NCBI GenBank assembly: GCA_029907305.1
Contig: JARYMC010000001.1
Coordinates: 1-38,526 of the forward strand
Direction of reading: 5' to 3'
From: Thermoplasmatota archaeon
Lineage (GTDB): Archaea; Thermoplasmatota; E2; DHVEG-1
DNA: 38,526 nucleotides
The notes under the pieces are model-generated. The model was not told the origin of the DNA. It saw nothing but the letters and a program-made list of their open reading frames with translations, and made no database searches. Position 1 is the first letter of the stretch, and every line of letters begins with the position of its first letter. Both the position numbers and the translations under genes were made by a program. Below are positions 7,359-26,041 of this stretch, in pieces.

Positions 7359-9761
7359 ATGCGGATGCGTTACATAAGAGGAAATAAAAAAGTAAAAAAA
7401 ATCGTTTTCAAACAGGAGGAATCTGTCTTGAAAAAAGACAGAGAAAAACCATTCAAAAAAACATCATCCTCCTCAAAAATAGATGAAAAAAAACTATTAG
7501 AAATAGAAAAAAAGATAGACGAAACCATAACAAAAAACAAAGAAACAACAGCTGAAAAAAACCTTGTAGAAAGATACTCATTCAAAAACAAACAAGGAGA
7601 AGCCATATATTTCCTAAAAGAGAAAAAAAACAATAACACTGAATCTAAAGATCTAAAAGAAGATGAAAAAGAATTTATAGAAGAACAACCAACCAATCAT
7701 AAAAACCAGGAAACAAACGGTTCTATAGATAAAAAAATAGATGAAATAATTTTTTCAAAATATGATGATAAAACAGGGGAGATAAAAACAGAAAACAGCG
7801 GAATTAAGAAAAAAGAAATCCTTTTAGAAAAGAACAAAACTGTAGACAAAAAAACAAAAAAAGAGAAAACTGCTAAAAATAGAAAATTAAGACTAAGAAT
7901 AGGAAAAAAAACCTTAAAACCAGATGAATTACCAGAAGAAGAATACGATGAAACTGAACCGCAAACTGATACTAACCTGTTGGATTCATCTGAAAAAGAT
8001 GATTTAAGTTTAACAGACATTTTGACGGCAAATGTTCAAGAAAATGGTTTAGAACATGTTTTTTTTGATGAGGTGGATATAAGTTTTGGTGGATGGAGCC
8101 CGAGGATAACTGATCAAGAAAAAAAGGATCTAGCATTGCCTTTCCAGGCTAAACCAGAGATTAAAAACGAGAACATGGTTGAGGCTGAGATACCAAAGGA
8201 ACTGTTCAAAGACAAATCCATGATAATTAAGGAGCTTGGTTTAAAAGAAAACGAATGGGAGGAGCTAGAGTTTTATCCACTAAAAGAGCCGTTTGCTTAT
8301 GTAGAAATATTACGTGAAAAAGAAAGCCTTGATAAACGCTATTTTTTAGTTGAAGTTGATTTAGATGAAGAAGAACAAAGGCTGGTAAAATTTATCACAG
8401 AAACCCTAACTACTTTATCAATAAATTATTTAGAGATGCAGTCAACTGGTGATGAGAAGTATCTGGTAAATAAAGTGGATGAGGTTATCAAAGAGTATGG
8501 TCTTAAAATAAGAGATGAGTCTAAAAAAAAGATATTGTATTATATCGAAAAAAGTTCTCTAGGGCTTGATAAAATAGATCCACTTATGAGGGATCCTAAC
8601 ATTGAGGACATATCATGTGATGGAGCTAACATACCAATCTTTTTGTATCATAGGAAGTATGGTTCACTTAAGAGCAATATTGATTTTAAAAGTGAGGATG
8701 AGCTTTCTTCTTTTATTTTTAAGCTTGCTCAGAAATGTGGTAAACACATAAGCATAGCGGAACCCATGCTGGATGCAACAATGCCAGATGGCTCAAGGAT
8801 ACAGATGACGCTTAGCGATGAGATCACTGCTAAGGGTTCAACGTTTACAATCAGGAAGTTTAGGGAAAACCCGTTCTCGCCACCTGATCTGGTTGAGTTT
8901 AACACGATGTCATCAGAGATGCTAGCTTATATGTGGCTTGCTGTTGAAAACGGTGTTAACACACTCATAGCAGGTGGAACAGCCAGTGGCAAAACCACTG
9001 TACTAAACGCACTCTCACTGTTTATCCCACGAGAATCAAAAATAGTAAGCATAGAAGAAACACGTGAAATCAACCTACCACACCCCAACTGGATACCAGG
9101 AGTAGCAAGAACAGGATTCGGAGAAATCGTACAAGACAAAATGGTCGGAGAAATAGACATGTACGACCTAATGAAAGCAGCACTAAGACAGAGACCAGAA
9201 TACATAATAGTAGGAGAAATCAGAGGAAAAGAAGCATACGTACTATTCCAAGCAATGGCAACAGGACACGCAACATACTCAACAGTACACGCAGACTCAG
9301 CTAAATCACTTATACACAGGCTTGAGGGTAAACCCATTGAGATACCTAGGATTATGTTACAGTCGCTTGATATTGTAACCATTCATATAACCACGCGTGT
9401 TAAAGGTAAACGTGTTAGGAGATGCAAGCAGATCATTGAGATAATAGACATAGATCCTACGACAAAAGAGATTCTTACAAACGAGGCTTTCCACTGGGAT
9501 CCTGTTGAGGACAAGTTCATCTACACTGGTAAAAGCTATGTTTTAGAGGGTATACGGGCCCGCTGGGATATGAACAAAGAGGAGATTGTTAATGAGCTTA
9601 GAAAAAGAGCTGAGATCCTAGAGTGGATGCGTGAAAAAAATGTTAGGACATTCAAAGAAGTAGCAAGGGTTATATCAAAGTATGCTGAAAACCCTGAAGA
9701 GGTTATGAAATTAGTTAAACAAAAAAAAGATGAAAACGTGATAAAAGATGCCTCTAACTAA
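7359..9761 (+). CDS. Type IV filament/secretion ATPase (FlaI/TadA/VirB11 superfamily) with a long Lys/Glu-rich N-terminal extension
   Basis: Walker A 'GGTASGKTT' (8974-9000), 'SIEETREI', Walker B-like 'PEYIIVGEIRGKEA', and 'GHATYSTVHA'. The first ~300 aa are low-complexity K/E/N-rich. Confidence 0.9.
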   Translation: MRMRYIRGNKKVKKIVFKQEESVLKKDREKPFKKTSSSSKIDEKKLLEIEKKIDETITKNKETTAEKNLVERYSFKNKQGEAIYFLKEKKNNNTESKDLKEDEKEFIEEQPTNHKNQETNGSIDKKIDEIIFSKYDDKTGEIKTENSGIKKKEILLEKNKTVDKKTKKEKTAKNRKLRLRIGKKTLKPDELPEEEYDETEPQTDTNLLDSSEKDDLSLTDILTANVQENGLEHVFFDEVDISFGGWSPRITDQEKKDLALPFQAKPEIKNENMVEAEIPKELFKDKSMIIKELGLKENEWEELEFYPLKEPFAYVEILREKESLDKRYFLVEVDLDEEEQRLVKFITETLTTLSINYLEMQSTGDEKYLVNKVDEVIKEYGLKIRDESKKKILYYIEKSSLGLDKIDPLMRDPNIEDISCDGANIPIFLYHRKYGSLKSNIDFKSEDELSSFIFKLAQKCGKHISIAEPMLDATMPDGSRIQMTLSDEITAKGSTFTIRKFRENPFSPPDLVEFNTMSSEMLAYMWLAVENGVNTLIAGGTASGKTTVLNALSLFIPRESKIVSIEETREINLPHPNWIPGVARTGFGEIVQDKMVGEIDMYDLMKAALRQRPEYIIVGEIRGKEAYVLFQAMATGHATYSTVHADSAKSLIHRLEGKPIEIPRIMLQSLDIVTIHITTRVKGKRVRRCKQIIEIIDIDPTTKEILTNEAFHWDPVEDKFIYTGKSYVLEGIRARWDMNKEEIVNELRKRAEILEWMREKNVRTFKEVARVISKYAENPEEVMKLVKQKKDENVIKDASN

Positions 9762-10611: not shown

Positions 10612-10615
10612 AAAA

Positions 10616-11530: not shown

Positions 11531-11538
11531 AGGTTATG

Positions 11539-11579
11539 AAAAAAAAAAATTTGTTTAAATTTTGTCAGAAATGACAAAA
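11539..11579 (+). promoter_or_regulatory. Shared upstream motif AAAAAAAATTTGTTTAA(A/G)TTTGTC plus an 8-bp hairpin
   Basis: 'aaaaaaaaaatttgtttaaattttgtc' recurs at 15110-15133 upstream of the next pilin-like gene. 'ttttgtca-gaaa-tgacaaaa' (11560-11579) is a perfect inverted repeat. Confidence 0.35.
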
Positions 11580-11657
11580 CGTCACGATATGATTAAATAC
11601 TAGTTTAGATAAAGTATAGCGTATTGAGGGGTGTGTTGCACATCTGGTGAAAATGGT

Positions 11658-14600
11658 ATGAAGAAAAATAACAGAGCGGTTTCACCTGTGATCTCAGCTG
11701 TTTTAGCTTTGATGATTGTTACTTCCACGATGACCGCTGTTTTCGTCTGGGGTGTACCATATATTGATCAGATTAACACTGTTACATCCATAGAAAACTC
11801 TTTAAACCAGTTCACCTCATTTATTGATTCTATAGGTGAGTTGACTAATTCCTATGTTAATGATAGTAGAATAAACACGTTAGGTGTTAGTAAGGGTAGT
11901 GTTTCTGCTGGTGTTGACGAAGGAGGAAAAGACAGGGTTGTTGTTACGTATTCATATGATGAGGGTTATGATTTCACTGTATCTGGTTTGGATACCTGTT
12001 TTTTAGCTGGGACAAAGGTTTTGATGGCAGATGAGTCTTATAAGAACATTGAAGAGATAAATATTGGTGACATGGTTTTATCATATGATGAACATCTTGG
12101 CAGGGTTGTTTCCTGTAGGGTAGTTAATGTTTTTGCTCATCATCCTAGTGAGATGGGTGATTATTATCTTGTAATAAATGATGGTTTGAGGGTTACTCCT
12201 AATCATAGGTTTTATTCTAATGGTAGATGGGTTTATGCCGGTAATCTAAGAGTCGGGGACCCGTTGTTTGGTAAGGATATGGGTTCTAACTATCAGGTTG
12301 TTTCTATTAAAAAAATATATGAGCGGGAGCAGAGTTTTGATTTAGAAGTTGAAGGTTGTCATACGTATTTTGTATCAGTTGGTGGTGTTGATGTTCTTGT
12401 GCATAATGATGATGTGCAATCCCCTGAAAATAAATTGGTTCTATACCCTGAAAAGGATACACATATTAGGGAATTTCACAACACTAAAACTGGTGAAGAT
12501 CATCGGTACCTAAATTTTGGTGGATCTCCAAAACTTAGTGTAGATCTACTCGCTGATCTATTTGGGATATTTTTGGGGAGAGAACATATTCTCATTAAAT
12601 TTGATCTAACAAGCATCCCGATTGGTTCAACCATAGTATCCGCGAAATTAGGCTTATATTATTACGAGTGGGGATATAAAAATTTGTGGTATGATAATCC
12701 TTCCGGTAAAAAACTTGAATGCCATAGGTTAAAGCGTGATTGGAAGGAAGGAAATGGACCGGATGAAGGGATAAGAGGGAACGCAAATTGGTTTAATTCA
12801 ACAGATGATGAAAAGTGGGATATCCTGGGAGGGGACTACGATAATGCTGTTACAGCCTCTGCAGAAATGCCAAACATAGGTAAGGATCCCCCTTATGATC
12901 CTGCATGGATTTATTTGGATGTAAAAAGCGATGTAATAAAATTTTTAAATGACGCACCAAATCATGGGTGGCTACTAAAATATGAAGATCCCCAATATGG
13001 AGTTATTCGGAGTTTTTTAGCTAATTTTACCTCAAATGAAACCACTGTTCAAGATCCGAATACTGGTGATATCGCGAGACCAAAACTAGAAATCATATAC
13101 CTGAAAACAGAAACACTTGGTGCAACCAATGTCCAGAAAAACCGTGCTACTCTTAAGGGCAAAGTAGTCTCATATGGTAATGGTTGTAAATATGGTTTTT
13201 ATTATAGAAAATATGGTACTGACAACTGGTTTTTTACAGGATGGCCAAACATAAATATGACGACAAATGGAGAATTCAGCAAACCTATACAAGGGCTTTC
13301 ACCTGGGTGTCTGTATGAGTACCGTGCGAGCATAAAATGCACATACCAATCCACTGATTACATAAATAACGGGTCTATCATGTATTTCCTTACACCTGGG
13401 GAGATAACCAATTTTAATGCAACTGCTGTTACACCTAGGGATATAATTCTTAAATGGGATCTAGTTGATAACGCAAAGGGGGCATACATTGAATGGTTTA
13501 CAACCCCACCGCCAAGCCCATGGAATCCAGAGCCTTATAACCAAAGCCGTAACAAGGTAGGCATAGATGGTTATTGCGAGGGTGAAAGTTTTCAACATAC
13601 TGGTCTAACACCAAGGACAACCTATTATTACAAGGCATGGGCATATGCTCGTAATAGTGGTTGGATATCAAATGGTAGTGCAACTGCTCCATTTGGAAAC
13701 ACATGTACTAAAGAGGAGGAAACATTTGATGCACCAATCATTTTTACTTATCCGTCACCAAATGTGAATCGTTCAAGGGATGCGACACTAAGAGGACTTC
13801 TCACACATACTACAACTGGAGAAAACTGTATGGTTTGGTTTGATTATGGTCTAACCCCAGCATGTGGCACTGCATCCAAAGACCGTGATTGGACAAATGG
13901 AACTGGTACGTATGATTTTAATATAACCATTGATGGGTTAAAACCAGGTACAAAATACTATTACCGCGCAGTATACGAAGCCGTATACGGAGGAGGCTAT
14001 AAATGTAGATATAGAGACCCAAATATCTCTAGTTTTACAACTCTTATAAACGACTTGGAGGTTGTTTCACCTCAATATAGTGACAGCTGGATAAAAGGGA
14101 TCACCCATAAAATAGAATGGTACTATGGACCAAAGTTAAAAGGTACTAACGTAACTATTGAGTTATATATAGGAAAAGATCCTTGTTATGGAGCAATAGA
14201 TGGGTATGATTACGTGGAGCTGCCCATAAACTATAGTGGAACCGATAAAAACGGGTCATTTAACTGGGTTATACCAAAGAATCTATCCAGTGGTAAATTC
14301 ATCTATAGGATAAAGATAACTAGTGTTTTTGACCAGAATATATATGATTACAGTGATTATTTTTCAATAAGAGATATACATGAAGGAATAGTGTGGAATA
14401 GAACAATAACACCAACACACGAAGGAGACAACAGATATCGGGTTAACTGTGGGTCATCTAGTTGTGAGGGAGATGAATCTTTTAATATCACAATGATAAA
14501 AGGTATTTTAACTAGAGCCGAGGTATACGGGCTTTATTACGGGGGAGAACTATGTGATTGCTCGTTCAGAGGAACAGTACAAATAGACCTATATAACGAT

Positions 14601-15068
14601 AGTTATTGTTTTGGTAGCATCATCCTCCTGGATTCTGATTCCTTAACCTACGAATCTCCATCTAGTAGCGGAACCTATATTTCAACAATTGAAAACGGCG
14701 GGCTTTTATATTCTGATCCCAACATAAATAAATATCTGAAAAAAACACCACCTATTTATGCTGGTGGAGGTGTTTTTTCAATGCATGCGATACAAATTGT
14801 TGCATCACCTTTTTCAGCAGGGGGAAGCAATGGTTTTAGGATCAGGGTAAAAACCGTTGTTAACGTAAACAGTATAAGAGAAAAGGATTATGTTTATAAT
14901 CTTAGACTACAGTTTTATGGTGACAACTCTGATTTGTGGTTAAAATATTTCAGGATTAACTACCCTGTTTTTGAGAGGCAGGGTGACACATTGTTTTATA
15001 CCTCTTCTTCTACATCTAAACTGTGGTTTGTGTTTTCACATACCGCGATTCAGATCAGTTTTGTATGA
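11658..15068 (+). CDS. Giant pilin-like surface protein: class III signal peptide, Hint domain, DNRLRE-like, FN3-like and Kre9/KNH-like modules, pilin-like C-terminal domain
   Basis: The ATG at 11658 is preceded by GGTGA (11646-11650). The track ORF starts at the GTG at 11631. N-terminus is 'MKKNNRAVSPVISAVLALMIVTSTMTAVFVWG'. Other motifs are 'ILIKFDLTSIPIGSTIVSAKLGLYYY' and FN3-like 'GLTPRTTYYYKAWAY' and 'GLKPGTKYYYRAVYE'. The N- and C-terminal ends resemble ORF 15194. Confidence 0.8.
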   Translation: MKKNNRAVSPVISAVLALMIVTSTMTAVFVWGVPYIDQINTVTSIENSLNQFTSFIDSIGELTNSYVNDSRINTLGVSKGSVSAGVDEGGKDRVVVTYSYDEGYDFTVSGLDTCFLAGTKVLMADESYKNIEEINIGDMVLSYDEHLGRVVSCRVVNVFAHHPSEMGDYYLVINDGLRVTPNHRFYSNGRWVYAGNLRVGDPLFGKDMGSNYQVVSIKKIYEREQSFDLEVEGCHTYFVSVGGVDVLVHNDDVQSPENKLVLYPEKDTHIREFHNTKTGEDHRYLNFGGSPKLSVDLLADLFGIFLGREHILIKFDLTSIPIGSTIVSAKLGLYYYEWGYKNLWYDNPSGKKLECHRLKRDWKEGNGPDEGIRGNANWFNSTDDEKWDILGGDYDNAVTASAEMPNIGKDPPYDPAWIYLDVKSDVIKFLNDAPNHGWLLKYEDPQYGVIRSFLANFTSNETTVQDPNTGDIARPKLEIIYLKTETLGATNVQKNRATLKGKVVSYGNGCKYGFYYRKYGTDNWFFTGWPNINMTTNGEFSKPIQGLSPGCLYEYRASIKCTYQSTDYINNGSIMYFLTPGEITNFNATAVTPRDIILKWDLVDNAKGAYIEWFTTPPPSPWNPEPYNQSRNKVGIDGYCEGESFQHTGLTPRTTYYYKAWAYARNSGWISNGSATAPFGNTCTKEEETFDAPIIFTYPSPNVNRSRDATLRGLLTHTTTGENCMVWFDYGLTPACGTASKDRDWTNGTGTYDFNITIDGLKPGTKYYYRAVYEAVYGGGYKCRYRDPNISSFTTLINDLEVVSPQYSDSWIKGITHKIEWYYGPKLKGTNVTIELYIGKDPCYGAIDGYDYVELPINYSGTDKNGSFNWVIPKNLSSGKFIYRIKITSVFDQNIYDYSDYFSIRDIHEGIVWNRTITPTHEGDNRYRVNCGSSSCEGDESFNITMIKGILTRAEVYGLYYGGELCDCSFRGTVQIDLYNDSYCFGSIILLDSDSLTYESPSSSGTYISTIENGGLLYSDPNINKYLKKTPPIYAGGGVFSMHAIQIVASPFSAGGSNGFRIRVKTVVNVNSIREKDYVYNLRLQFYGDNSDLWLKYFRINYPVFERQGDTLFYTSSSTSKLWFVFSHTAIQISFV
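11997..12407 (+). other. Hint (Hedgehog/intein-like) domain, copy 1, 137 aa
   Basis: Starts at Cys ('CFLAGTKVLMADESY'), has block B 'VTPNHRF', and ends 'GVDVLVHN'. The next residue is Asp (12408-12410). No endonuclease insert. Confidence 0.75.
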
Positions 15069-15109
15069 TGATGCAGATTCTTTGTTTTAATAATATCATA
15101 TTTTTAAAG

Positions 15110-15150: not shown

Positions 15151-15193
15151 AGAGAAATAGGATTACTTGTTATAATTTGAGTGGGATAGTTGG

Positions 15194-16192: not shown

Positions 16193-19100
16193 GGAGTATA
16201 ACCTACGATAGAAAGGGTGTTTCAAATATTCTTGGTTACGTTTTTTCATTTGGCGTAGCATCTATGTTGATGATTAGCGCTGTTCTTATAACCACAGGTA
16301 TACTTGATAACAGAACCGCTGCTGTTGCAGGTATGCAGGCTCAGAGTGTTGCCAACAAGATAGCAGACGCGGTTGTAGAGGCAATCGCGGTACTACAGTC
16401 TCCATCTAACATGGGTTATAAAAAAACCTTGGATATACCTATGGATATAGCTGGGCGTAGCTACTATGTTGATGTCACAGATAAACTGATATACGTAAAC
16501 ACCACAGATGGGCTGGTGAGCAGAAGCTGCCCAACCTACACAGCTGAGGACCTAAAAATCGGTGTTGGTGGTGGTAGAACATATTGTGGTGGCGTAGGCA
16601 AGATCAATGTTTCTGTTGATAAATCTGATACACTCTATAAACTGGATTTCGGATCAGGAAACACAACCAGGCATTCACCTGTTGCATCAGGATATTATTT
16701 TGTGAGTAACACATCTGCAATAAAGCCTGAGTTAAGGGACCCACCTTGGTGGAATACTAGTTATACAAACAGGGTTCCAATATTGATAAACAACACCTCA
16801 CCATATGATCTGGTAAATGTACCAGTTAAGGTAGTTCTCAACACATCAAATTTTGATTACAGCAAGGCAAATGTGGTTTTTGAAGAATCTTCTTCAAATT
16901 TTACATCTAATCTTGTTTTTAATGACCCCTCAGATAATGCTGTGACTAAGATCGAAATCCTTACAAAGGAATGGAACCCTGGTTGGTTTTATACTTACTA
17001 CTATCCTACTGAAAACACTGTTACTGTTAGAATCAAAGAGATTGCTGGAGGATATGATATATCCTACATAAGAGGAGAAACCATTAAGTTAAACGGAAAT
17101 GTAAAAAGAAAATCATGGGATGCATCTACAGGTATTGCTAAATTTGATGGCAAAGAAGCTCTGGAGTCGCTTGAAAACGGGGAACATTTCCTAAAAAAAT
17201 CTAGGTACACTGTTACTGTTTCTGGTTTACTTAAAAACGGGGTTGAATTCTACGGCTTAGGAGATATATCTATAAATGCTGTGTACGTTCGCCCCGGGGA
17301 TAGCATAAAAAATGCTATTCAGAGATCATCCCCAGGGGGCACGGTTTTTGTATACAAAGGAACATATGTTGAAGAGGGTTTAAGTATAAATAAACCGTTG
17401 AATCTTATTGGCGAAAGCAGGGATGAAACTATTTTTAATGTAAATAAAAGTTATAAAACTGCCATCAATATAGATAGCACATCTTATGTAAATATCGACT
17501 CCTTCTGGGTATACCCAAAGCTACAATCTAATGAACCTGGGAGTGGACCTGGGATTGGTATAGATGTCAGTAAGTGTGAACATGTTAATATCACAAACTG
17601 TAGGATAAACAAAACTGCAAAAGGCATAAGAATAGGTGATTTATCATCTGATGTTTCTATATCAAATTGTTTAACATATGACATAACGCCCTCCGACGAC
17701 GTGCGTGGGAATGGAATAGCTGTTGCGAACAGCAAATACGTTCGTATCACAAACTGCACAACATATCATCTTAATACAACCCTTGGCGACGGTTTTGATA
17801 TTCGCTCATCTGAGTACGTCGATGTAATAAGATGCATATCTCATAGCCATTATGGAAAGAGGGCAAATGGGGTAAAGTTAATAGCTAGTAATCATTGTAA
17901 CGTAATAGACAGCAGGTTCTATAATCTCACTGGTAACGCAACAGCTGGTGTAGAGATCTGCGCAGATGTTAATGGAAACCCAAGCAAATATAATGTGGTA
18001 AAAGGCTGTGTTATATATGGGAACAACGCATCTGGTGCTCCAAATGATGTAGGACGCGGGGTTTATATCGCGGATGCGGGCACTGATTATAACATTATTG
18101 AGAATTGTACTATTTACAAAAACAGCATAGGCATACAATTTACAACTATTATTGCTTATGAGTTTGAAAAACTCAGCCTCATATTGGAAGGGCTCCTTGA
18201 TTTTTTTAAGGAGGGACCAAAATCTCATAACAGTATACTAAACTGTAGTATATACGAAAATCTAAACCATGGCATAGCTTTTTTCCATATGCTAGGTAAT
18301 AATATCAGCAACTGCAACATTTATAACAATGGCATAAACCCAAACATGGGTACATCGTTTGATGACCCATGTGGCATTCTTCTCGTAGCTTCTGGAAAAA
18401 ACAACATAACAAATTGTAACATCTATAAAAACGGTCTAAGTGATAAATCGGGTGGCTGTGGTCTTATTTTAATATTTGCTGGATGGAACCATATAGAATA
18501 TTGTAACATATATGGCAACATTAAAAGTAGCAGCCATCTCAAGTCTGGGGATGGTATTAAACTTATGTCATCTTATGGTACTTTTTCTCTGACAGGATGC
18601 GGATTTAACGAAATAAAATATTGTAATGTCTTTGATAACGGCAGAGATGGCCTCGAGTTATACAAAGGCAACACTTTAAACAAAATTTCCAATTGCAATT
18701 TCTATTGCAATGGTGAAAAAGGAGTCTACATTAGTGGTATTAATCCTTCTAATCAGATAGAGTATAGCAATTTCGAAAAAAACGGTGAAAATGCCAATGA
18801 TAGTATATTAGGAGGAATAAATTCTTGGAATGGAAATTTTTGGGATGACTTTGAATCTAATTGTGGACACGATGATGGTTATTATTGTATCCCACCTGGT
18901 ATTTGTGGGGAGGAGAAATGTCTTGGTCATGGAGATGATAACCCGCGATCTACTCGTAACCCAAATCCTGCTTTTTTCCAAGTTGACTACAGTTACTCTG
19001 CTGAGGATTTCTACCACACGCGATCAATAAAAAATGCACTACAAAACATGGATACCATGGAAGTTGGAGGGACTGTAAAGGTTTATGCTGGTACTTATAA

Positions 19101-21633
19101 CGGCATCGTAACAATAAAACAAGCAAATGTTAAGCTAATAGGCGAAGGAAACGTTATTGTCAGTGGTAATGATCCACCACTGAAATCAACAGCTATCACT
19201 GTGAAAAATTATAGTGTCAGCATAGAAGGATTAACAATAAAAGATAGCCTAAGAGGAATATGGTATAAAAATAACCTTTCTTCAGGAGGTTTACCTTTAA
19301 AAATCAAAAATTGCAAAATAGAAAACAATACCCAAGAAGGCATTTATCTAGGGGGAAACAGCAACAACTACTGCATTATAAATAGCTGTAACATATCCAA
19401 CAATAAATATGGCATATATGGTGGTACAAATGGTAACAAAATCATAGACTGCACCATCAAAAATAACAATGATGCTGGTGTTAAAATCAAAAACCGTAAT
19501 TCAAATAACTTCACAAACTGCACTTTATCTAATAACAAAATCGGTTTCATCATAGAATCTGGTTCTGATAACATCATCATCAACTCCAGGATACTTAATC
19601 ATGAAAACGAGGGTATCAAAATCTCAGGCTCCTCTAATAACAATATTTTGAATTGTAATGTAAATGGTAATAATGAAGGTATTAGTATCACAGGTTCTTC
19701 CACTAACAACAAGATTTCAAACTGTACTATAAATTACAACGCTAAGGGCATCTATATTGATTCCTTAGGAAATGCTAGCTATAACGAGATCAGTTACTCT
19801 AATATATCTGGTAGTACAAATGGTGTAGAGATAAAAGATTCTTTTGACAATACTATCACGTACTGTAATATTTATAACAATAGCAACGGCGTCTATATAC
19901 ATGACAACACTCCGCTATCATGTAATTATATTCTTTGCGAGAATATTATCACAAACTGCAGCATATATAATAACAATAATTACGGTGTTTTGACTAATAC
20001 ATCATCATATTACAACAAAATATATCACAACATTTTTAAAAACAAAAAAAACGCTAACGCTAAGGAAAAAAAATATCCGAACATATGGGATAATGGTTAC
20101 CCAAGTGGTGGAAACCTATGGTCTGACTATGATGACGAATCAGATAATGCCTTTGACTACTTCAGCGGAGAAAGCTATCCCCCTGGAGGTCAAGAGGACC
20201 CTGGCAGCGACGGCATAGCAGACAAACCATACAACAAAAACGGTGTGAAAGACAAATATCCATTCTGTAGAAAAAACCCTAGGATACCCTACTACATAGA
20301 TTACTGGAACCCACATGGTGAATCTGTGATCCTAGTAAACATAAGCATAGGAGCACACTCAGCTAAATGCATAAATCTATACTATGGGTATGATGGAGCA
20401 TTAGAAAAAATCCATAATCATACCATGAATGAGATATCACTGTTTTTTGATGACTTCCTCGGAACTAGTATTGATACAAACAAGTGGCTACGGCTACAAG
20501 CTTCAGAACCAATTACGCCGAAATATAAAGTCCAAGACGGGTGTATCAATTTTTCAGATGAAGGAAACATCACAACAAAAGATTTTGCCATACCAGATAT
20601 TGGGGATCCACCAAAAAATACACTGTCTCTAACCACAAACGAGTCAATGTACATCGTTGAAGCAAAAATGAAAATAAACAGAGGGCAGGGTAATATGATT
20701 TTACTGAAAATAGGCACTAATAGATCCTACTATTTAGTTTCAGCTAATGCAACACCATCACATACCCTCTCTCTTCATAAAAATTGTTTACCTCCACATA
20801 AAACATTTTATGAATTAGATAATGCCCCCTCATCAAACCTAAGCCACTGGATAAGAATGAAAGCCTACATACACCTAAGCAAAACCTACTACCCAGACCC
20901 ATATAATCCAAGCAAGTACTTACAAACAAATGCTACATTTATAAAAACCTATGTCTATGATTACAATACATTTGCTGATCTAGCCAGCGTCTCAGCTTTA
21001 GATACATGGAGCTACCCAGGAAGTTGGTCTGAGCCACCATACGAAGCAGCACAAGGCAAACCATATCCATACCCAGGACACAATGGTAAAATTGGTTTAG
21101 GATCCGGAATACTATCCTCAGAAGTTAGCAACGTCTTAATCGACTGGATAAGGGTAATGAAAACCCCGGTTGTTCAACCAACAGTCACAGTTGGAAGCAT
21201 GGAATCCATAAACTACGGATGGGACACATCAGGTGTAAAAACCTGGAACACAAACAACCCAAACCCATTTGAGCTAACAAACCCAGTGCTCTGTGATTTC
21301 AACTATGGTATTAGTAGCCCCACTGGGCCGAGCTTAAGTATAAACTTTGTAATAAAAAATTTACCCGCTGGTAAATATACTATCACAGTTACAAAAGGTA
21401 ACTACACAAACACAACCGACCAAATAACAGTTACAGTTACAGAAACCGGCAGCGAATCCAAAGAAATGAATATCCCAGATACAGACTACGGTAAATTCGA
21501 AACAAAATGGGTTACAATAAACAAAGAAAAAGATAACAGTGATATAAACATTGTTTTTTCCGGTAAAAAATGGCTTGTAAACTCAATTATCATAGACCGA
21601 GGAGCAAAAGGCGTTAAAGTAGGATGGGAATAA
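16189..21633 (+). CDS. Giant (1814 aa) pilin-like surface protein with DUF2341-like, two parallel beta-helix (PbH1/NosD-like) arrays and a LamG-like region
   Basis: ATGA overlap with the previous stop. N-terminus is 'RKGVSNILGYVFSFGVASMLMISAVLITTG'. DUF2341-like segment is 'WWNTSYTNRVPILINNTSPYDLVNVPVKVVLNTSNFDYSKAN'. Beta-helix array starts are 'GDSIKNAIQRSSPGGTVFVYKGTYVEEGLSINKPLNLIGE' and 'SIKNALQNMDTMEVGGTVKVYAGTYNG'. There are dozens of 'I.NC.IYNN..GI' turns. Confidence 0.8.
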   Translation: MRSITYDRKGVSNILGYVFSFGVASMLMISAVLITTGILDNRTAAVAGMQAQSVANKIADAVVEAIAVLQSPSNMGYKKTLDIPMDIAGRSYYVDVTDKLIYVNTTDGLVSRSCPTYTAEDLKIGVGGGRTYCGGVGKINVSVDKSDTLYKLDFGSGNTTRHSPVASGYYFVSNTSAIKPELRDPPWWNTSYTNRVPILINNTSPYDLVNVPVKVVLNTSNFDYSKANVVFEESSSNFTSNLVFNDPSDNAVTKIEILTKEWNPGWFYTYYYPTENTVTVRIKEIAGGYDISYIRGETIKLNGNVKRKSWDASTGIAKFDGKEALESLENGEHFLKKSRYTVTVSGLLKNGVEFYGLGDISINAVYVRPGDSIKNAIQRSSPGGTVFVYKGTYVEEGLSINKPLNLIGESRDETIFNVNKSYKTAINIDSTSYVNIDSFWVYPKLQSNEPGSGPGIGIDVSKCEHVNITNCRINKTAKGIRIGDLSSDVSISNCLTYDITPSDDVRGNGIAVANSKYVRITNCTTYHLNTTLGDGFDIRSSEYVDVIRCISHSHYGKRANGVKLIASNHCNVIDSRFYNLTGNATAGVEICADVNGNPSKYNVVKGCVIYGNNASGAPNDVGRGVYIADAGTDYNIIENCTIYKNSIGIQFTTIIAYEFEKLSLILEGLLDFFKEGPKSHNSILNCSIYENLNHGIAFFHMLGNNISNCNIYNNGINPNMGTSFDDPCGILLVASGKNNITNCNIYKNGLSDKSGGCGLILIFAGWNHIEYCNIYGNIKSSSHLKSGDGIKLMSSYGTFSLTGCGFNEIKYCNVFDNGRDGLELYKGNTLNKISNCNFYCNGEKGVYISGINPSNQIEYSNFEKNGENANDSILGGINSWNGNFWDDFESNCGHDDGYYCIPPGICGEEKCLGHGDDNPRSTRNPNPAFFQVDYSYSAEDFYHTRSIKNALQNMDTMEVGGTVKVYAGTYNGIVTIKQANVKLIGEGNVIVSGNDPPLKSTAITVKNYSVSIEGLTIKDSLRGIWYKNNLSSGGLPLKIKNCKIENNTQEGIYLGGNSNNYCIINSCNISNNKYGIYGGTNGNKIIDCTIKNNNDAGVKIKNRNSNNFTNCTLSNNKIGFIIESGSDNIIINSRILNHENEGIKISGSSNNNILNCNVNGNNEGISITGSSTNNKISNCTINYNAKGIYIDSLGNASYNEISYSNISGSTNGVEIKDSFDNTITYCNIYNNSNGVYIHDNTPLSCNYILCENIITNCSIYNNNNYGVLTNTSSYYNKIYHNIFKNKKNANAKEKKYPNIWDNGYPSGGNLWSDYDDESDNAFDYFSGESYPPGGQEDPGSDGIADKPYNKNGVKDKYPFCRKNPRIPYYIDYWNPHGESVILVNISIGAHSAKCINLYYGYDGALEKIHNHTMNEISLFFDDFLGTSIDTNKWLRLQASEPITPKYKVQDGCINFSDEGNITTKDFAIPDIGDPPKNTLSLTTNESMYIVEAKMKINRGQGNMILLKIGTNRSYYLVSANATPSHTLSLHKNCLPPHKTFYELDNAPSSNLSHWIRMKAYIHLSKTYYPDPYNPSKYLQTNATFIKTYVYDYNTFADLASVSALDTWSYPGSWSEPPYEAAQGKPYPYPGHNGKIGLGSGILSSEVSNVLIDWIRVMKTPVVQPTVTVGSMESINYGWDTSGVKTWNTNNPNPFELTNPVLCDFNYGISSPTGPSLSINFVIKNLPAGKYTITVTKGNYTNTTDQITVTVTETGSESKEMNIPDTDYGKFETKWVTINKEKDNSDINIVFSGKKWLVNSIIIDRGAKGVKVGWE
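17281..20056 (+). other. Right-handed parallel beta-helix repeat region (two NosD/pectate-lyase-like arrays)
   Basis: Periodic ~22-25 aa units such as 'NITNCRINKTAKGIRI', 'NISNCNIYNNGIN', 'NITNCNIYKNGLS', 'IEYCNIYGN', 'IINSCNISNNKYGIY', 'ILNCNVNGNNEGISI'. Confidence 0.75.
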
Positions 21634-21639
21634 AAAAAA

Positions 21640-22230
21640 ATGGATGAAAAAGCCCAGATGATGGTAATAGAATCAATAGTTTTCACAATCACCATACTCG
21701 TCGCCCTAATCTTCTTCTACCAACTATCACCAACCACAACAGTCAGTAACATATACACAAACGACCTAAAAATCAAAGGCGACGACGCCCTTAGAACACT
21801 ATACAACGACCAAGTTACAGTAGATTTACCAAAAAATTTCCCAAAAAACAAACTCATATTCTACCTGATAAAAGACAGCTACGAAAGCATGGTTCTACAC
21901 CTACAAAGCAAACTCCCATCAAACACCATATTCAACATATACATAAGCAACGGAACAAACAAGACATTTTGGTGCTCATCCGCCATAAATAACGCAACAC
22001 CTTTACCAGTTACAGAACCAGTCACAATATCACACTACATAATATCAATACATCCACAGTTTTTCAACCAATCAAAATTTCCAAGTATAATCAGCAATGA
22101 TGGTTGTGAAATAGCAAAAGCATTCAACGTATATAAAATGGATGAGTATGGAAAAATTGACATAACAAAAATAAGAGAAGACTACAAAGACTCCACATAT
22201 GATGTGATACTAGAAATGTTCTACACATAA
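21640..22230 (+). CDS. Small pilin-like protein (class III signal peptide)
   Basis: N-terminus 'MDEKAQMMVIESIVFTITILVALIFFYQL'. 196 aa, 6 nt after the preceding stop. Confidence 0.55.
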   Translation: MDEKAQMMVIESIVFTITILVALIFFYQLSPTTTVSNIYTNDLKIKGDDALRTLYNDQVTVDLPKNFPKNKLIFYLIKDSYESMVLHLQSKLPSNTIFNIYISNGTNKTFWCSSAINNATPLPVTEPVTISHYIISIHPQFFNQSKFPSIISNDGCEIAKAFNVYKMDEYGKIDITKIREDYKDSTYDVILEMFYT

Positions 22231-22265
22231 AGAAAAAAACAAAAAAAAAACATAATGAGGATGTT

Positions 22266-22778
22266 ATGAAAAACAAAAAACATAACAAAAAAAACAGAAA
22301 ACTATGCGATCAAAAAAACGGGCAGATGATAATAATAATGGGGGTAGTACTAGCACTCATAATCTTCGTAATAGCCTCACTATCAGCCGACATAATAAAC
22401 CTCAACGTGATAATATCAAATGAAAGAGCCACATCAATAGTATCCGAGTTCAACTACATAAAAGAAGCTTTTGGAACATCCCTAAACTACAATCTAATAA
22501 ACAATGTTACCAGACAAACCGAAGAAAAAGAAAGCTTTTTGATATTCCAAGGAGACATTCATGGTATCACAGAAGCATTCAATCAAACCAGAGACACGTT
22601 CTACACCATAGAGCTAAACTACAGCAGAGTCTTCGATGCAAATCTAAACAAATACTGGTATTCACATAAAAGCGATGAAAACCACATATACCATGTTAGC
22701 GTAACCCTATCACTCTACGACGGAAAAACCTACATAGCTGAAAACGTTGTGTACTCCATACTATGCGAACCATCATAG
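22266..22778 (+). CDS. Small pilin-like protein (class III signal peptide)
   Basis: Basic leader followed by 'KNGQMIIIMGVVLALIIFVIASL'. 'gagg' lies upstream of the ATG. Confidence 0.55.
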   Translation: MKNKKHNKKNRKLCDQKNGQMIIIMGVVLALIIFVIASLSADIINLNVIISNERATSIVSEFNYIKEAFGTSLNYNLINNVTRQTEEKESFLIFQGDIHGITEAFNQTRDTFYTIELNYSRVFDANLNKYWYSHKSDENHIYHVSVTLSLYDGKTYIAENVVYSILCEPS

Positions 22779-22888
22779 AACAAAATCATAAAAAGAGAGG
22801 AATAATGCCAAAATGACATAATCTCATAAAAAATTTAAATAACAAAAATTGAAAAGTATAATATTAATAGTATGTGGAGAAAAAGCTC

Positions 22889-25800
22889 ATGAAAAGATAC
22901 AGAAAACATCTTATCAACGATGAAAAAGGTGTTTCTCAGGTTTTAGAATCATTGATAGCAATTGGTATATCTGTCTTGCTTCTGCTCATATTTTTTATAA
23001 CCGCGAACAACATATTTGTCGCCCATGATAAACCTAGTATTGACATGGAAGCAAAATGTATAGCTATCATGGAAACTCTACTCAGCTCACCAGGTCAAGG
23101 CAATGAATACGAATCAAACTGGGAGAACAACCCTGAAAAACTTAGCAGCCTTGGTTTAGCTACATCCCCAACAATAGCATATGGTAGCTTTCATATGAAC
23201 GACAAGGGTCAGATAACAGAGTTGTACAAAAAACCTTTTTATGATAGTAGCATAGGCATAGCTAAAACATGTTTTTTAGCTGGGACAAAAATAGTGATGG
23301 CAGATGAGTCCTACAAAAACATTGAGGATATTATTGTTGGAGACATGGTTTTATCATATGATTTAGAAACAGGTGAAATCACAGATGGAAAAGTTACCCA
23401 TGTCTTGCATCACAAGCCAGGGGAGATGGGTGATTATTATCTTGTAATAAATGGTTTCCTCAAAGTGACACCTAACCATCAAATATACTCCAATGGTAGA
23501 TGGGTTTATGCTAGTGAACTAAAAACCGGTGATCCATTGTTTTACCCATCCAGGGACTACAAAGTTGAATCTATAGAAAAAGTCTATGAAAAAATGCCTA
23601 CCTATGATTTTGAGGTTGATGTTAGTCACTGTTATTTTGTAGCTATGGATACAACTGATGTTTTGGTTCATAATCCACCACTATACAACGTCCCACCGAT
23701 CGCTAAGTTCACATGGTTTGACATCGACGGCCTTAACAGTGAGACAACCATATTTTTTGATGCATCTGAGTCTTATGATCCAGATGGAAGAATAGTAGAA
23801 TATAAATGGGATTTCGGAGACGATGAATCTACAACTAGTGATAAGCCAACAGCCTCTCACACCTTTTATGATAGCAGCATGTATATGGTTAGCCTAACAG
23901 TCACCGATAACGAAAGCGCAAATAATACCTATACTTGTGCTGTTCAAGCAAACACCCTTAGCCTCCCAGACATTGAACAAGCACCATGGGTACTAACCGG
24001 GAAAAACATATATTCCTATAACAACGACCAAACACTCTCACCATGTGACGAAAACTACTATGTTGAATACAAAAACCTAGGCAACAACAATTATTCATTT
24101 GAGATAAAAGAAAAAAACAGTCTATATACAATCATAGATTACGATAAAATCACTAATCTCTCGAAAATAGGATATTGGGGTGCGAAATTAATTTTAGGGT
24201 TAAACGAAATCAGTAACGTATTGTATAGCTTTAACATAACCATTATTAGCTACAGTGGTGGAACAACCTATTACTATGGACCAACATGGGAAAACGCTAA
24301 CGCTATGGTTTCAAACAGTAGAGACGTTTTAATATACCATAAACCCGAGGTGAACAAAAGCGACATAACCGATATCACCCCACCATATTATGAGAACGGA
24401 AAGATCATCCTACGTTTCTTCATAGGTGGACCACCACCAAACAGACCACCAAACACACCTAGTAACCCAAGCCCAGTTAACGGAACAACTAAGGTTCTAA
24501 TAACCGCTGATCTCAGCTGGGGTTGTAGTGATCCTGATGATGACCTATTGACTTATGATGTTTACTTTGGTAACACACCTAACCCACCGAGGGTATCTCG
24601 AGGTCAACCCAGTACCATTTATGATCCAGGATTATTGAATGAAAACGAATGGTACTATTGGATGATAGTAGCCAGGGATCAATATGGTGCATCAACAGCT
24701 GGTCCAGTTTGGAGTTTCAAAACTACGTATGTCAGTGGTATACATCCACCACCATACACACCAAGTAATCCTAACCCAGCAAAGGGATCAACAGGTGTAT
24801 ATATAGATGACGATTTGTCCTGGGATGGTGGAGACCCAGAGTCTGGTGATGAAGTGAAATATGATATATATTTCGGTACAAATCCTTCGCCACCACATAT
24901 TGGTACCGCACGCTGGCCAGGGAGCCAAAGACGAATAACCTACCCTCTTGGAACAATGGAATACAACACTACCTATTATTGGAAGATTGTAGCTACAGAT
25001 AACTATGACAATACAGAAGAAGGCCCGATTTGGAGGTTCACAACAAGAAAAAATGATCCATTTATGCCAAATAACCCCAGTCCAGCAGACGATTCTAATG
25101 TAAATCCCCTTAAAACGACACAACTGAGTTGGTATGGAGGAGACCCAGACGGCCCAGATGACACAGTAACTTATGATATATACCTTTGGAACAGCATAAA
25201 TCCACCACCACCTGAACCTATTGGTTTTATCAAAATCTCAGGAGGCTGGTATGACCCTATAACCTATGACCTTCCTGAACCATTGGGGTATAACAAAACC
25301 TATTACTGGAAGATTATAGCTACAGATACCCATAGTAATTCTGCAGAAAGTCCGATTTGGAATTTTACCACTTATGATCCATGTATGCCCAGAAACCCGT
25401 TTCCCGTCAACGAATCAATCAATATAGATGTTGAAGTGCAACTGGAGTGGGACGGCGGAGACCCAGACGGCCCAGATGACACAGTAACTTATGATATATA
25501 CCTTTGGAACAGCATAAATCCACCACCACCTGAACCTATTGGTTTTATCAAAATCTCAGGAGGCTGGTATGACCCTATAACCTATGACCTTCCTGAACCA
25601 TTGGGGTATAACAAAACCTATTACTGGAAGATTATAGCTACAGATACCCATAGTAATTCTGCAGAAAGTCCGATTTGGAATTTTACCACTTATGATCCAT
25701 GTATGCCCAGAAACCCGTTTCCCGTCAACGAATCAATCAATATAGATGTTAAAGTGCAACTGGAGTGGGATGGCGGAGACCCAGATGGCCCAGAGGATAC

Positions 25801-26041
25801 TGTAACTTATGATATATACCTTTGGAACAGCATAAATCCACCACCATCTAAACCTATTGGTTCCATACTCGAAGTCCCAGGAGACGAGATACGGCAAGTA
25901 TATAGGCCCGGATCACTGATGCAAGGAACCATCTATTATTGGTATATCAAAGCTACAGATAGTCATGGTTTACAAACAGTTGGGCCGATATGGAAGTTTA
26001 CCACCACTCCCTCTGACTCTGGAGGGAAAGGTATAGGGTAG
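22889..26041 (+). CDS. Giant pilin-like adhesin: class III signal peptide, Hint domain, PKD domain, five FN3-like modules
   Basis: The ATG at 22889 is preceded by 'ggag'. The track ORF starts at the GTG at 22874. N-terminus is 'EKGVSQVLESLIAIGISVLLLLIFFI'. PKD segment is 'FDASESYDPDGRIVEYKWDFGDD'. FN3-like modules follow the pattern 'P.NP.P..G.....LSW.GGDPD...V.YDIY......YYWKI.ATD....'. Confidence 0.8.
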   Translation: MKRYRKHLINDEKGVSQVLESLIAIGISVLLLLIFFITANNIFVAHDKPSIDMEAKCIAIMETLLSSPGQGNEYESNWENNPEKLSSLGLATSPTIAYGSFHMNDKGQITELYKKPFYDSSIGIAKTCFLAGTKIVMADESYKNIEDIIVGDMVLSYDLETGEITDGKVTHVLHHKPGEMGDYYLVINGFLKVTPNHQIYSNGRWVYASELKTGDPLFYPSRDYKVESIEKVYEKMPTYDFEVDVSHCYFVAMDTTDVLVHNPPLYNVPPIAKFTWFDIDGLNSETTIFFDASESYDPDGRIVEYKWDFGDDESTTSDKPTASHTFYDSSMYMVSLTVTDNESANNTYTCAVQANTLSLPDIEQAPWVLTGKNIYSYNNDQTLSPCDENYYVEYKNLGNNNYSFEIKEKNSLYTIIDYDKITNLSKIGYWGAKLILGLNEISNVLYSFNITIISYSGGTTYYYGPTWENANAMVSNSRDVLIYHKPEVNKSDITDITPPYYENGKIILRFFIGGPPPNRPPNTPSNPSPVNGTTKVLITADLSWGCSDPDDDLLTYDVYFGNTPNPPRVSRGQPSTIYDPGLLNENEWYYWMIVARDQYGASTAGPVWSFKTTYVSGIHPPPYTPSNPNPAKGSTGVYIDDDLSWDGGDPESGDEVKYDIYFGTNPSPPHIGTARWPGSQRRITYPLGTMEYNTTYYWKIVATDNYDNTEEGPIWRFTTRKNDPFMPNNPSPADDSNVNPLKTTQLSWYGGDPDGPDDTVTYDIYLWNSINPPPPEPIGFIKISGGWYDPITYDLPEPLGYNKTYYWKIIATDTHSNSAESPIWNFTTYDPCMPRNPFPVNESINIDVEVQLEWDGGDPDGPDDTVTYDIYLWNSINPPPPEPIGFIKISGGWYDPITYDLPEPLGYNKTYYWKIIATDTHSNSAESPIWNFTTYDPCMPRNPFPVNESINIDVKVQLEWDGGDPDGPEDTVTYDIYLWNSINPPPSKPIGSILEVPGDEIRQVYRPGSLMQGTIYYWYIKATDSHGLQTVGPIWKFTTTPSDSGGKGIG
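23270..23674 (+). other. Hint (Hedgehog/intein-like) domain, copy 2, 135 aa
   Basis: 'CFLAGTKIVMADESY...VTPNHQI...TTDVLVHN', followed by Pro-Pro (23675-). Shares identical nucleotide runs of up to 31 nt with copy 1. Confidence 0.75.
23693..23953 (+). other. PKD domain
   Basis: 'PPIAKFTWFDIDGLNSETTIFFDASESYDPDGRIVEYKWDFGDDESTTSDKPTASHTFYDSSMYMVSLTVTDNESANNT'. Confidence 0.75.
24458..26006 (+). repeat. Five tandem FN3-like protein modules (~88-106 aa each)
   Basis: Module starts are PSNPSPVNGTT, PSNPNPAKGST, PNNPSPADDSN, PRNPFPVNESI and PRNPFPVNESI. Each ends with 'GP[IV]W.F.T'. Confidence 0.8.
25141..25866 (+). repeat. 318-bp tandem direct repeat, 2 full copies plus ~90 bp of a third
   Basis: 25141-25458 and 25459-25776 differ at only 2 positions (g/a in 'gttgaagtg' vs 'gttaaagtg', c/t in 'gggacgg' vs 'gggatgg'). 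The third copy diverges after ~25866. The period is 106 codons, so the repeat is in frame. Confidence 0.9.

Follow-up and report, generated by a model that had tools for sequence, protein, structure and literature searches.

A nine-gene type IV filament locus in an uncultured archaeon

We analyzed a 38,526-nucleotide stretch of DNA from a Thermoplasmatota archaeon (assembly GCA_029907305.1, contig JARYMC010000001.1, positions 1 to 38,526; hereafter "the window"). Positions 7359-26041 carry nine co-directional genes on the plus strand, encoding a secretion ATPase, two T2SSF-type membrane proteins and six pilin-like open reading frames (ORFs) that we designate A to F (Table 1). The window is a piece of archaeal chromosome in which the cluster is flanked by genes for SepF, a PUA-domain protein, Rpp21, S19e, L31e, eIF6 and a class I aminoacyl-tRNA synthetase, and its nearest public relatives are uncultured Thermoplasmatota metagenome-assembled genomes (MAGs); relatives derive from marine sediment and comparable sources. 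We favor, with modest confidence, the interpretation that this locus is an operon for building a type IV pilus not used in motility, whose minor pilins include giant, modular and Hint-bearing proteins.

A preliminary description of the same DNA had proposed a non-archaellum type IV filament locus with six pilin-like ORFs, three of them giants composed of many modules, and our results support this proposal, with adhesin-type cargo in the giants. The nine ORFs lie on the plus strand where that description placed them. The FlaI/TadA-type ATPase and two T2SSF proteins assigned to 7359-11530 are borne out by family matches, the six quoted N-termini are exact, and the lengths given for the giants (1136, 1814 and 1050 amino acids (aa)) are correct. 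The gaps between the genes were said to be tiny or overlapping. From the gene for the C-terminal half of the platform protein to ORF F they measure, in order, +127, +125, -4, +6, +35 and +110 nucleotides (nt), and the statement does not hold for all of them. Two Hint domains, the paralogy of ORFs A and B and a 318-nt repeat in ORF F had escaped notice.

Table 1. Genes and protein features of the type IV filament locus (positions within the window; an arrow marks the predicted leader cleavage site)
Feature	Coordinates	Strand	Evidence
Secretion/assembly ATPase, 800 aa, core at ~aa 300-785	7359..9761	+	PF00437 T2SSE, 3e-36
Platform protein, N half, T2SSF/TadC-like, 287 aa	9748..10611	+	PF00482, 4e-19
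Platform protein, C half, T2SSF/TadC-like, 304 aa	10616..11530	+	PF00482, 2e-23
ORF A, 1136 aa, DUF7289-type scaffold apparently split by insertion of Hint plus cargo	11658..15068	+	profile, homologues, AlphaFold2
ORF A, pilin N-half: leader MKKNNRA↓VSPV, helix and first beta strands, ending GLDT	11658..11996	+	DUF7289 N-terminal match, 5e-5; AlphaFold2
ORF A, Hint, aa 114-250: Cys114, Thr180-x-x-His183, His249-Asn250, then Asp	11997..12407	+	PF07591
ORF A, cargo: DNRLRE (aa 285-479), then FN3/Ig-like array	12510..14537	+	NF033679, 2e-11; Pur_ac_phosph_N/fn3/Kre9_KNH
ORF A, pilin C-half, aa 969-1128, homologue of the ORF B beta domain (C-terminal)	14562..15041	+	profile, AlphaFold2
ORF B, 332 aa, uninterrupted DUF7289-type pilin-like protein, paralogue of A	15194..16192	+	40 homologues, AlphaFold2
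ORF C, 1814 aa: DUF7266 pilin-like N-module (aa 7-118), beta-helix, DUF2341, PEGA-like end	16189..21633	+	Pfam
ORF D, 196 aa, small pilin-like, leader MDEKA↓QMMVIE	21640..22230	+	orthologue alignment
ORF E, 170 aa, small pilin-like, leader ...DQKNG↓QMIII	22266..22778	+	orthologue alignment
ORF F, 1050 aa: pilin-like N-module (aa 1-127), Hint (128-262), PKD (267-350), FN3-like repeats	22889..26041	+	
ORF F, Hint, aa 128-262: Cys128 ... His261-Asn262, then Pro-Pro	23270..23674	+	PF07591
ORF F, tandem repeat of 318 nt (2.3 copies, 98% identity) that codes for FN3-like modules	25139..25862	+	

A GspE-like ATPase and a platform protein in two pieces

The best solved relative of the window ATPase is Archaeoglobus fulgidus GspE (2OAP, 454 bits), compared with 302 bits for FlaI and 143 bits for CpaF. 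The protein scores 425 bits on the FlaI equivalog model, which has a cut-off of 550, and 207 bits on the BasE model, for which the cut-off is 1000 bits. It gives a weak PilB3_C match (21 bits versus a cut-off of 27) and contains no clear PilB3_N/C domains, and the best haloarchaeal plasmid matches to it share ~41-43% identity (tblastn, ATPase core). By these comparisons, the enzyme appears to be of a euryarchaeal type resembling A. fulgidus GspE and haloarchaeal PilB.

Protein families were searched for in all non-shadow window ORFs longer than ~130 aa, with a few shorter ORFs left out. Among the ORFs scanned, no archaellum-specific family (archaellin, ArlF/G/H, ArlCDE or ArlX) was found. Together with the score below the FlaI cut-off, this led us to reject an archaellum, as the preliminary description had done. 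The Sulfolobus bindosome (Bas) was rejected as well. Its large non-pilin proteins with class III signal peptides and its type IV filament ATPase/platform pair are reminiscent of the locus, but the window has no substrate-binding-protein domains, and scores for BasE and BasF fall far under their cut-offs.

The two T2SSF genes correspond to different parts of the 555-position ArlJ/FlaJ model: the product of the first aligns with positions 5-243 and that of the second with positions 272-540. Because they match the N- and C-terminal halves of this model, respectively, the two genes are best regarded as encoding one platform protein that has been split.

The N-terminal ~300 residues of the ATPase (7359-8260) form a Lys/Glu/Asn-rich, low-complexity extension without a family match, at the position taken by a zinc ribbon in homologues. 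A sister contig (GCA_050410955.1; L081, 622-4570) carries tandem ATPase genes, one for a window-like protein of 772 aa and one for a 550-aa protein with an N-terminal zinc ribbon. The 5' part of the single window gene is like the first sister gene and its 3' part is like the second, as if two paralogues had recombined or had been collapsed during assembly. In most other relatives, the zinc-ribbon type of ATPase adjoins the platform genes.

Six proteins that begin like pilins

Each of ORFs A to F opens with a polar leader, which is followed by an Ala/Gly site and then by a long hydrophobic helix. When a FlaFind-like pattern of our own was applied to all ORFs of at least 40 aa in six frames, it picked these six genes and, beyond them, nothing but antisense shadow ORFs and a segment inside an ABC permease fragment. 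Orthologues of A, B and C share the motif [A/G]↓V-[S/T]-x-V. The D family has the motif A↓Q-x-x-V-x-E, with Glu11 invariant among 11 orthologues and Gln6 kept in at least 90% of them, and the E family has [G/S/A]↓Q-x-I, with Gln at +1 and Gly at +7 invariant in nine orthologues. The leaders are presumably cleaved by a prepilin peptidase at these sites. Matches to general pilin models are sparse: Pilin_N scores only 15 bits, with a weak match in the N-half of ORF A, the locus gave no match to DUF361/Class_IIIsignal (PF04021), and Pfam gave no match to the N-terminal modules of D and F.

Structure prediction, which had been suggested for these N-termini, yielded a long helix followed by beta structure for both proteins modeled. 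The AlphaFold2 model of ORF B (38 homologues; pLDDT 85.6, pTM 0.81) has a helix of 63 residues (aa 4-66) and then an all-beta domain. For ORF A (model pLDDT 79), a 55-residue helix at aa 8-62 precedes the beta structure. As modeled, the N-termini of A and B would thus be pilin-like "lollipops" rather than 20-residue membrane anchors.

A probable five-family cassette shared with haloarchaea

The N-module of ORF C matches DUF7266 with 43.1 bits, above the cut-off of 27.6. PF23960 (DUF7289) is detected in most of the 40 homologues of ORF B, and the ORF B family profile finds a haloarchaeal DUF7289 protein at 2e-11. Searches with the ATPase core (tblastn) led to haloarchaeal plasmids, including NZ_CP058531.1 of Halobaculum halophilum, where a Pilin_N pilin, an ATPase and a fused T2SSF protein are followed in order by DUF7287, DUF7288, DUF7261, DUF7266 and DUF7289 proteins, all of 150-333 aa. 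The window family profiles for B, D, E and F each score best against a different member of this Halobaculum cassette. Given these separate best matches and the DUF7266 match of ORF C, the six ORFs appear to be the same five-family cassette with DUF7289 present twice, as A and B.

Three of the assignments are weak. ORF D is weakly DUF7288-like (two of 11 members at 0.002, hhalign 0.008, best halo-cassette match by profile 7e-4), ORF E is weakly DUF7261-like (0.077, 0.0096 and 1e-3), and ORF F reaches only 0.15 against DUF7287. With hhalign against single haloarchaeal proteins, the N-terminal helices alone were aligned.

According to the preliminary description, no characterized equivalent of the locus was known. 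In line with that view, no experimentally characterized one was found in the literature, but the locus does have precedents: the cassette matches a set linked to pilB/pilC in haloarchaea, and comparable systems have been described in archaea and bacteria (PMC4858521; 10.64898/2026.04.22.720090; PMC8179133). Makarova et al. (2016) catalogued euryarchaeal pilus loci with two tadC genes and at least five minor pilins. Their clade 2 loci have their own pilin set and often two tadC genes, and a minor pilin of all-beta fold, arCOG02911, is duplicated and differs in length (PMC4858521). As judged from family content, the pilus type in the window appears to be this euryarchaeal clade 2, which has been catalogued by comparative genomics and never characterized. 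We found no relevant paper on DUF7266, DUF7287, DUF7288 or DUF7289.

The likeness to clade 2 (the Haloferax volcanii PilB4-type or System 2 loci, as in Halobaculum) consists of a GspE/PilB3-like ATPase, one or more platform genes and then what appears to be the DUF7287/7288/7261/7266/7289 cassette, with DUF7289 duplicated and variable in length in the window as is arCOG02911. There are also differences. The haloarchaeal cassette proteins carry neither cargo nor Hint domains, whereas three of the window proteins have 1050-1814 aa; in addition, the window platform is divided between two genes, the gene order differs, and the ATPase is without clear PilB3_N/C domains.

Conserved gene order and variable attachments

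A synteny survey, proposed earlier as a check, showed that the gene order recurs. The arrangement ATPase-T2SSF-T2SSF-A-B-C-D-E-F-Rpp21 is found in ~15 Thermoplasmatota contigs (MAGs) at the same chromosomal site before Rpp21-S19e, and the sister contig has the same order at 97-99% DNA identity. Across related loci the pilin modules are conserved and the attached parts vary. C-like proteins range from 641 to 1836 aa and keep the N-module, and A-like proteins range from 431 aa without an insert (L064) to 1458 aa. F-like proteins extend from a bare ORF of 127 aa, which is the N-module alone (L066; downstream sequence unchecked), to more than 1000 aa. In the sister contig, ORF F encodes 838 aa rather than 1050 aa, a difference of 212 aa that corresponds exactly to two repeat units.

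Other arrangements of the same machinery exist. In more distant relatives from Methanomassiliicoccales (L071-L080), two ATPase genes surround the platform genes, and the opposite strand encodes a ~2000-aa protein with an N-terminal hydrophobic helix. In five further relatives that lack the six-gene cassette, the ATPase gene and the platform pair immediately precede Rpp21-S19e, and some of these encode a ~420-aa secreted protein instead.

Pilins or anchored surface proteins?

Several results weigh against the interpretation of the locus as a pilus assembly operon. At -2, only four of the six ORFs carry Lys or Arg, with Tyr found in B and Asn in E, and the residue is unconserved across orthologues. 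A Foldseek search of the PDB with the ORF B model returned nothing at E ≤ 1e-3, with top TM-scores below 0.2; structure prediction therefore did not extend to a match with a solved pilin. No Peptidase_A24 (prepilin peptidase) match exists among the window ORFs scanned, as had been stated previously, and none was found by a crude motif scan of 81 related loci. Among window ORFs of at least 40 aa there is no candidate major pilin. The window proteins A and B score under the Pfam cut-off for DUF7289 (18.7 bits versus 27 for ORF B), and the links of D, E and F to DUF7288, DUF7261 and DUF7287 are weak and lie mostly in the N-terminal helix. Because some relatives have the machinery without the cassette, the core machinery must be independent of the six genes. 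Finally, the interpretation requires a pilus machine able to handle subunits of 1,000-1,800 residues.

Read together, the missing peptidase, the non-canonical -2 residues of B and E, the mostly sub-threshold N-terminal Pfam matches and the cassette-less relatives could mean that A to F are ordinary signal-anchor surface proteins encoded beside an ATPase/platform operon, neither processed by a peptidase nor assembled. We consider this improbable. An ordinary anchor would not be expected to have a predicted helix of 55-63 residues followed by a beta domain, nor to belong to the families that follow pilB/pilC in haloarchaea, and the gene order and tight linkage have been kept in ~15 genomes. Moreover, Gln at +1, invariant in E and present in at least 90% of D orthologues, and the invariant Glu at about +6 in D are features in the style of pilins.

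Under the pilus interpretation, the six ORFs form a conserved minor-pilin set rather than the bulk (major) pilin. In Methanococcus maripaludis, the Epd pilus (clade 1, System 1) offers a parallel: it has one ATPase, two TadC-like platform genes, at least five minor pilins and large DUF2341 proteins predicted to be tip adhesins, its major pilin is encoded away from the locus, and some of its pilins have Gln at +1, as do ORFs D and E. The large DUF2341 "adhesins" of clade 1 (Epd) loci were noted by Makarova et al. (PMC4858521). Large adhesin-like proteins in System 2 loci are reported in a preprint by Sivabalasarma and Albers (2026), where their role is called unknown (10.64898/2026.04.22.720090). 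Unlike the Epd system, the window locus has no DUF361/Class_IIIsignal matches, no EppA within the locus and a GspE-like ATPase, and no Epd component carries a Hint domain as do ORFs A and F.

A pilin scaffold interrupted by cargo

A profile built only from uninterrupted orthologues of ORF B matches ORF A twice, with profile positions 3-112 aligned to residues 2-114 and positions 161-319 aligned to residues 969-1128. The ~850 residues between the two halves comprise the Hint, DNRLRE and FN3/Ig-like domains. On the basis of this alignment, the Hint and cargo of ORF A appear to sit inside a loop of the DUF7289 fold. Both halves of the scaffold are modeled by AlphaFold2 at pLDDT ~75-90, and the C-half has the same secondary structure as the corresponding part of ORF B, with strands, one helix and strands. 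Foldseek of the ORF A model retrieves FN3 arrays (LAR, fibronectin, titin) at ~1e-12. This architecture recurs in 82 homologues of ORF A that join DUF7289, PT-HINT and variable cargo; a full-length query was needed to find them, as the first 260 aa gave Hint-level matches only.

Searching 1.84 billion cluster representatives with the ORF B profile yielded 917 members at E ≤ 1e-3. Among the best 150 of these 917, ~53 have at least 500 aa and ~21 at least 1000 aa (up to 2302), with matches in two stretches around profile position 110-150. Giant DUF7289 proteins with a split scaffold are therefore common in metagenomes. In five related loci, the paralogue at the position of ORF B has a large insert in the same loop with no Hint. 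Thus, the loop accepts cargo with or without a Hint domain.

The modules named in the preliminary description are present: Beta_helix/NosD and DUF2341 in C, PKD and FN3/Ig-like domains in F, and DNRLRE with FN3-like domains in A. ORF C has two parallel beta-helix regions at ~aa 370-1320 (Beta_helix 3e-47, NosD 2e-28), and its DUF2341 domain (aa 1362-1433) scores 33.2 bits, above the cut-off of 23.4. ORF F matches PKD_4 at 1e-16, along with Big_5/Ig models. The cargo of 51 large relatives consists of PKD, Y_Y_Y, LamG, DUF2341, cadherin/Ig, FN3, BACON and beta-propeller modules. Cargo had been called "adhesin- or enzyme-like" at first. The adhesin-type part of that label is appropriate, but the enzyme-like part is not, given that the cargo of ORF A matches FN3 arrays and that no catalytic or toxin family was found in the 51 relatives.

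Bacterial modular pilins, in which a small pilin module bears a grafted functional module (Raynaud et al. 2021; PMC8179133), are built on the same principle. Examples are PilB and PilC of Streptococcus sanguinis, CofB and GspK; lectin/LamG, FN3 and PKD-type modules recur in both groups, and GspK resembles ORF A in having a domain inserted within the pilin beta-sheet. Membership of the bacterial group is, however, defined by the N-methylation motif IPR012902, which is not applicable to archaeal leaders. The largest reported bacterial example has 860 aa, and an autoprocessing peptidase (IPR030392) but no Hint domain is listed among the modules.

Hint domains adjoin the pilin modules of ORFs A and F

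In ORFs A and F, a Hint domain directly follows the pilin module. Both score well above the cut-off of 27.7 bits for PF07591 (PT-HINT), at 58.2 bits for A and 54.7 bits for F, and the closest solved structures are the PT-HINT domain of 8W20 (3e-16) and the Clostridium thermocellum bacterial-intein-like (BIL) domain 2LWY (1e-8). Related loci contain 35 Hint domains in 29 ORFs from 20 loci. A Hint is present in 62 of 99 split-scaffold proteins; in 53 of the 62 the domain borders directly on the N half, in four it borders on the C half, and in five it is internal. Some split-scaffold proteins contain two or three Hint domains in tandem.

The residues of class 1 inteins are partly conserved in these domains. 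Cys114, Thr180 and His183 of the ORF A Hint are invariant in 42 homologues. In a set of 67 Hints picked by their Cys1 motif, the block B TxxH is present in 66, Thr precedes the domain at -1 in 51 and the terminal His-Asn is found in 56, and ten lack the Asn. The nucleophile required at +1 is missing: ORF A has Asp there and ORF F has Pro, and the residue is generally Asp, Ala, Pro or Gly, with Ser, Thr or Cys at 7 of 57 sites compared with a background of 17%. A canonical (class 1) splicing intein was therefore ruled out. Because Cys1 and TxxH are kept and the +1 residue is not a nucleophile, the conserved chemistry should be the N-terminal acyl shift and not splicing. Judged by the loss of the terminal Asn, C-terminal cleavage would also be excluded in some of the Hints.

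This residue profile corresponds, by sequence, to that of BIL/PT-HINT domains (PF07591; 2LWY, 8W20), which are mini-Hints with Cys1, TxxH and usually a terminal His-Asn and which have no +1 nucleophile. BIL domains self-cleave and sit in hypervariable secreted proteins (PMC7765530). Self-cleavage is known or predicted for BIL/PT-HINT domains, and we infer that the window Hints likewise cleave themselves at the Thr↓Cys junction after export. The known hosts of BIL/PT-HINT domains have so far been mainly bacterial; in the window, by contrast, the domain occupies a fixed loop of a pilin scaffold and no toxin lies downstream. In Hedgehog (Hog-Hint) proteins, too, a Hint lies behind an exported N-terminal module and releases it by way of a Cys1 thioester, but the window Hints are without the sterol-recognition region.

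The Hints of A and F are each other's best matches, with 56% identity overall and ~85% over the first 32 residues. This is as high as the similarity between the Hint of A and its orthologues in other genomes, and suggests exchange of Hint domains within a genome. The most compact architecture that we encountered is a 500-aa metagenomic DUF7289 protein (P0285) whose sole insert is a Hint (aa ~144-280) without the terminal His-Asn.

Such a Hint is also joined to an N-methyl pilin leader in two bacterial proteins (L085 192-5558, from JGI 3300007351, and L083 8001-8867). The first of these contigs encodes, in order, an N_methyl pilin, a hypothetical protein, a prepilin peptidase, the pilin-Hint protein (416 aa, with the Hint at its C-terminus), two hypothetical proteins and a PilX_N protein. 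By its gene content, this is a bacterial minor-pilin operon. A C-terminal Hint, found in such bacterial proteins (for example P0009), is also the Hedgehog arrangement.

We found no paper linking Hint, intein or pretoxin domains to pilins, and there is no mention of Hint domains or inteins in PMC4858521 or 10.64898/2026.04.22.720090. A Hint embedded in a pilin scaffold is new relative to the literature found.

A neutral element, a processing module or a functional partner?

The Hint domains could be bacterial-intein-like elements that remove themselves by splicing or double cleavage, are merely tolerated in a permissive loop and play no part in the pilus. The insert of P0285, a Hint placed between adjacent scaffold positions, has an intein-like appearance, and the frequent terminal His-Asn, the tandem Hints of several relatives and the mutual best match of the A and F domains, which is compatible with intragenomic spread, all fit such an element. 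In addition, BIL domains are typical of hypervariable regions in non-conserved secreted proteins (PMC7765530). Nonetheless, we regard this explanation as unlikely. Ser, Thr and Cys are unenriched at +1, which excludes canonical splicing, and the ten Hints without a terminal Asn, P0285 among them, could neither splice nor cleave at the C-terminus and yet keep Cys1 and TxxH. A tolerated element would also not be expected to lie so consistently at the N-terminal edge of the insert, or to have been fused independently to pilins in bacteria.

The PF07591 scores, the hypervariable cargo and the PGAP name of the sister protein ("polymorphic toxin-type HINT domain-containing protein") bring to mind a polymorphic-toxin-like system, with PT-HINT freeing a variable C-terminal effector directed against competitors. 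We rejected it as extremely improbable, as no toxin, nuclease, deaminase or immunity family is present in the window or in the cargo of the 51 large relatives. Moreover, the Hint is followed by FN3, PKD or DNRLRE domains, and ORF A ends in a conserved structural half-domain rather than in a variable tip.

In a further scheme, the machinery would work in the manner of a type II secretion pseudopilus or bindosome. The pilin module would do no more than deliver the giant protein to the cell surface, and the Hint would then free the cargo, which would act as an adhesin or binding protein that is either secreted or bound to the S-layer. This would be in keeping with PT-HINT domains as processing modules that precede released toxin domains, a role to which the PGAP name and Streptomyces relatives also point. 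ORF F has no C-terminal pilin half that could retain the cargo, its N-module occurs alone as the 127-aa pilin of L066, and some archaeal proteins bearing class III signal peptides are known to be displayed without being polymerized (10.64898/2026.04.22.720090). Yet ORF A and more than 60 relatives keep the conserved C-terminal half of DUF7289 beyond the cargo, which would be odd if the cargo were simply shed. In the four relatives whose Hint lies at the C-terminal end of the insert, the cargo would remain on the pilin helix after cleavage, and 37 of the 99 insert-bearing relatives have no Hint at all. Display and release therefore strikes us as rather doubtful.

A model for the giant pilins

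According to the pilus interpretation, the ATPase and two-gene platform would pull the pilin-like proteins out of the membrane after their leaders had been cut by a peptidase encoded elsewhere. ORFs A to F might then come together in a priming or tip complex of a filament whose major pilin is also encoded elsewhere. Filament formation, tip location and adhesion are thus parts of the model, and by analogy the six proteins would prime assembly and sit at the filament tip; the analogy is with bacterial minor pilins, PilY1, modular pilins (PMC8179133) and the models of Makarova et al. Three small scaffolds would have been turned into carriers of large adhesin-type modules, such that the pilus presents FN3/PKD stalks, DNRLRE, beta-helix and DUF2341 lectin-like modules, perhaps for attachment to surfaces or polysaccharides.

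After export and folding, the Hint might form a thioester at the Thr↓Cys junction and break the chain there. The product of ORF A would then be a two-chain pilin that retains its cargo by means of the C-terminal half of the DUF7289 fold. For ORF F, the PKD/FN3 cargo might be held only by non-covalent contacts, or it might be shed. We tentatively suggest that the Hint is a recurrent functional partner of pilins in archaea and bacteria, which produces either a two-chain adhesin that can be released by force or an activated pilin C-terminus. In the former case, a giant adhesin would be held by complementation of a split beta-domain and would let go under force. In the latter, an activated C-terminus, as in Hedgehog, would allow a covalent link to a neighboring subunit, the envelope or a substrate. 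In both cases, this would be the first pilin to process itself and would represent a novel mechanism by which a pilus tip is armed or disarmed.

Apart from the archaellum and a few adhesion pili, the type IV pili of archaea have hardly been studied. The cassette illustrates what such a system might become: a platform that presents very large and rapidly changing adhesin modules, with cargo that differs between relatives and repeat numbers that differ between near-identical genomes. The Hint domain provides a concrete biochemical handle, since it occupies a fixed loop of the scaffold and retains the thioester-forming residues but not those for splicing. With a related fusion in a bacterial minor-pilin operon, the question of whether pilins can process themselves would bear on type IV filaments generally, and the archaeal pilin Hints would bring BIL/PT-HINT biology into archaea.

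Other features of the window

A tRNA-Arg(TCG) gene at 7086-7157 on the minus strand, ~200 nt upstream of the ATPase start, is the sole RNA gene that ARAGORN and Rfam detect over the window. At 3494-4849, ABC transporter ORFs resemble fragments: the permease ORF spans only profile positions 57-184, and the ATPase domain is divided between two short ORFs (3998-4567 and 4577-4849), which suggests frameshifts or pseudogenes. A serpin gene (77-610, cut by the window edge) lies near a gene for a C25 gingipain-type cysteine peptidase (1497-2912); the two constitute an inhibitor/protease pair with no relation to the pilus locus.

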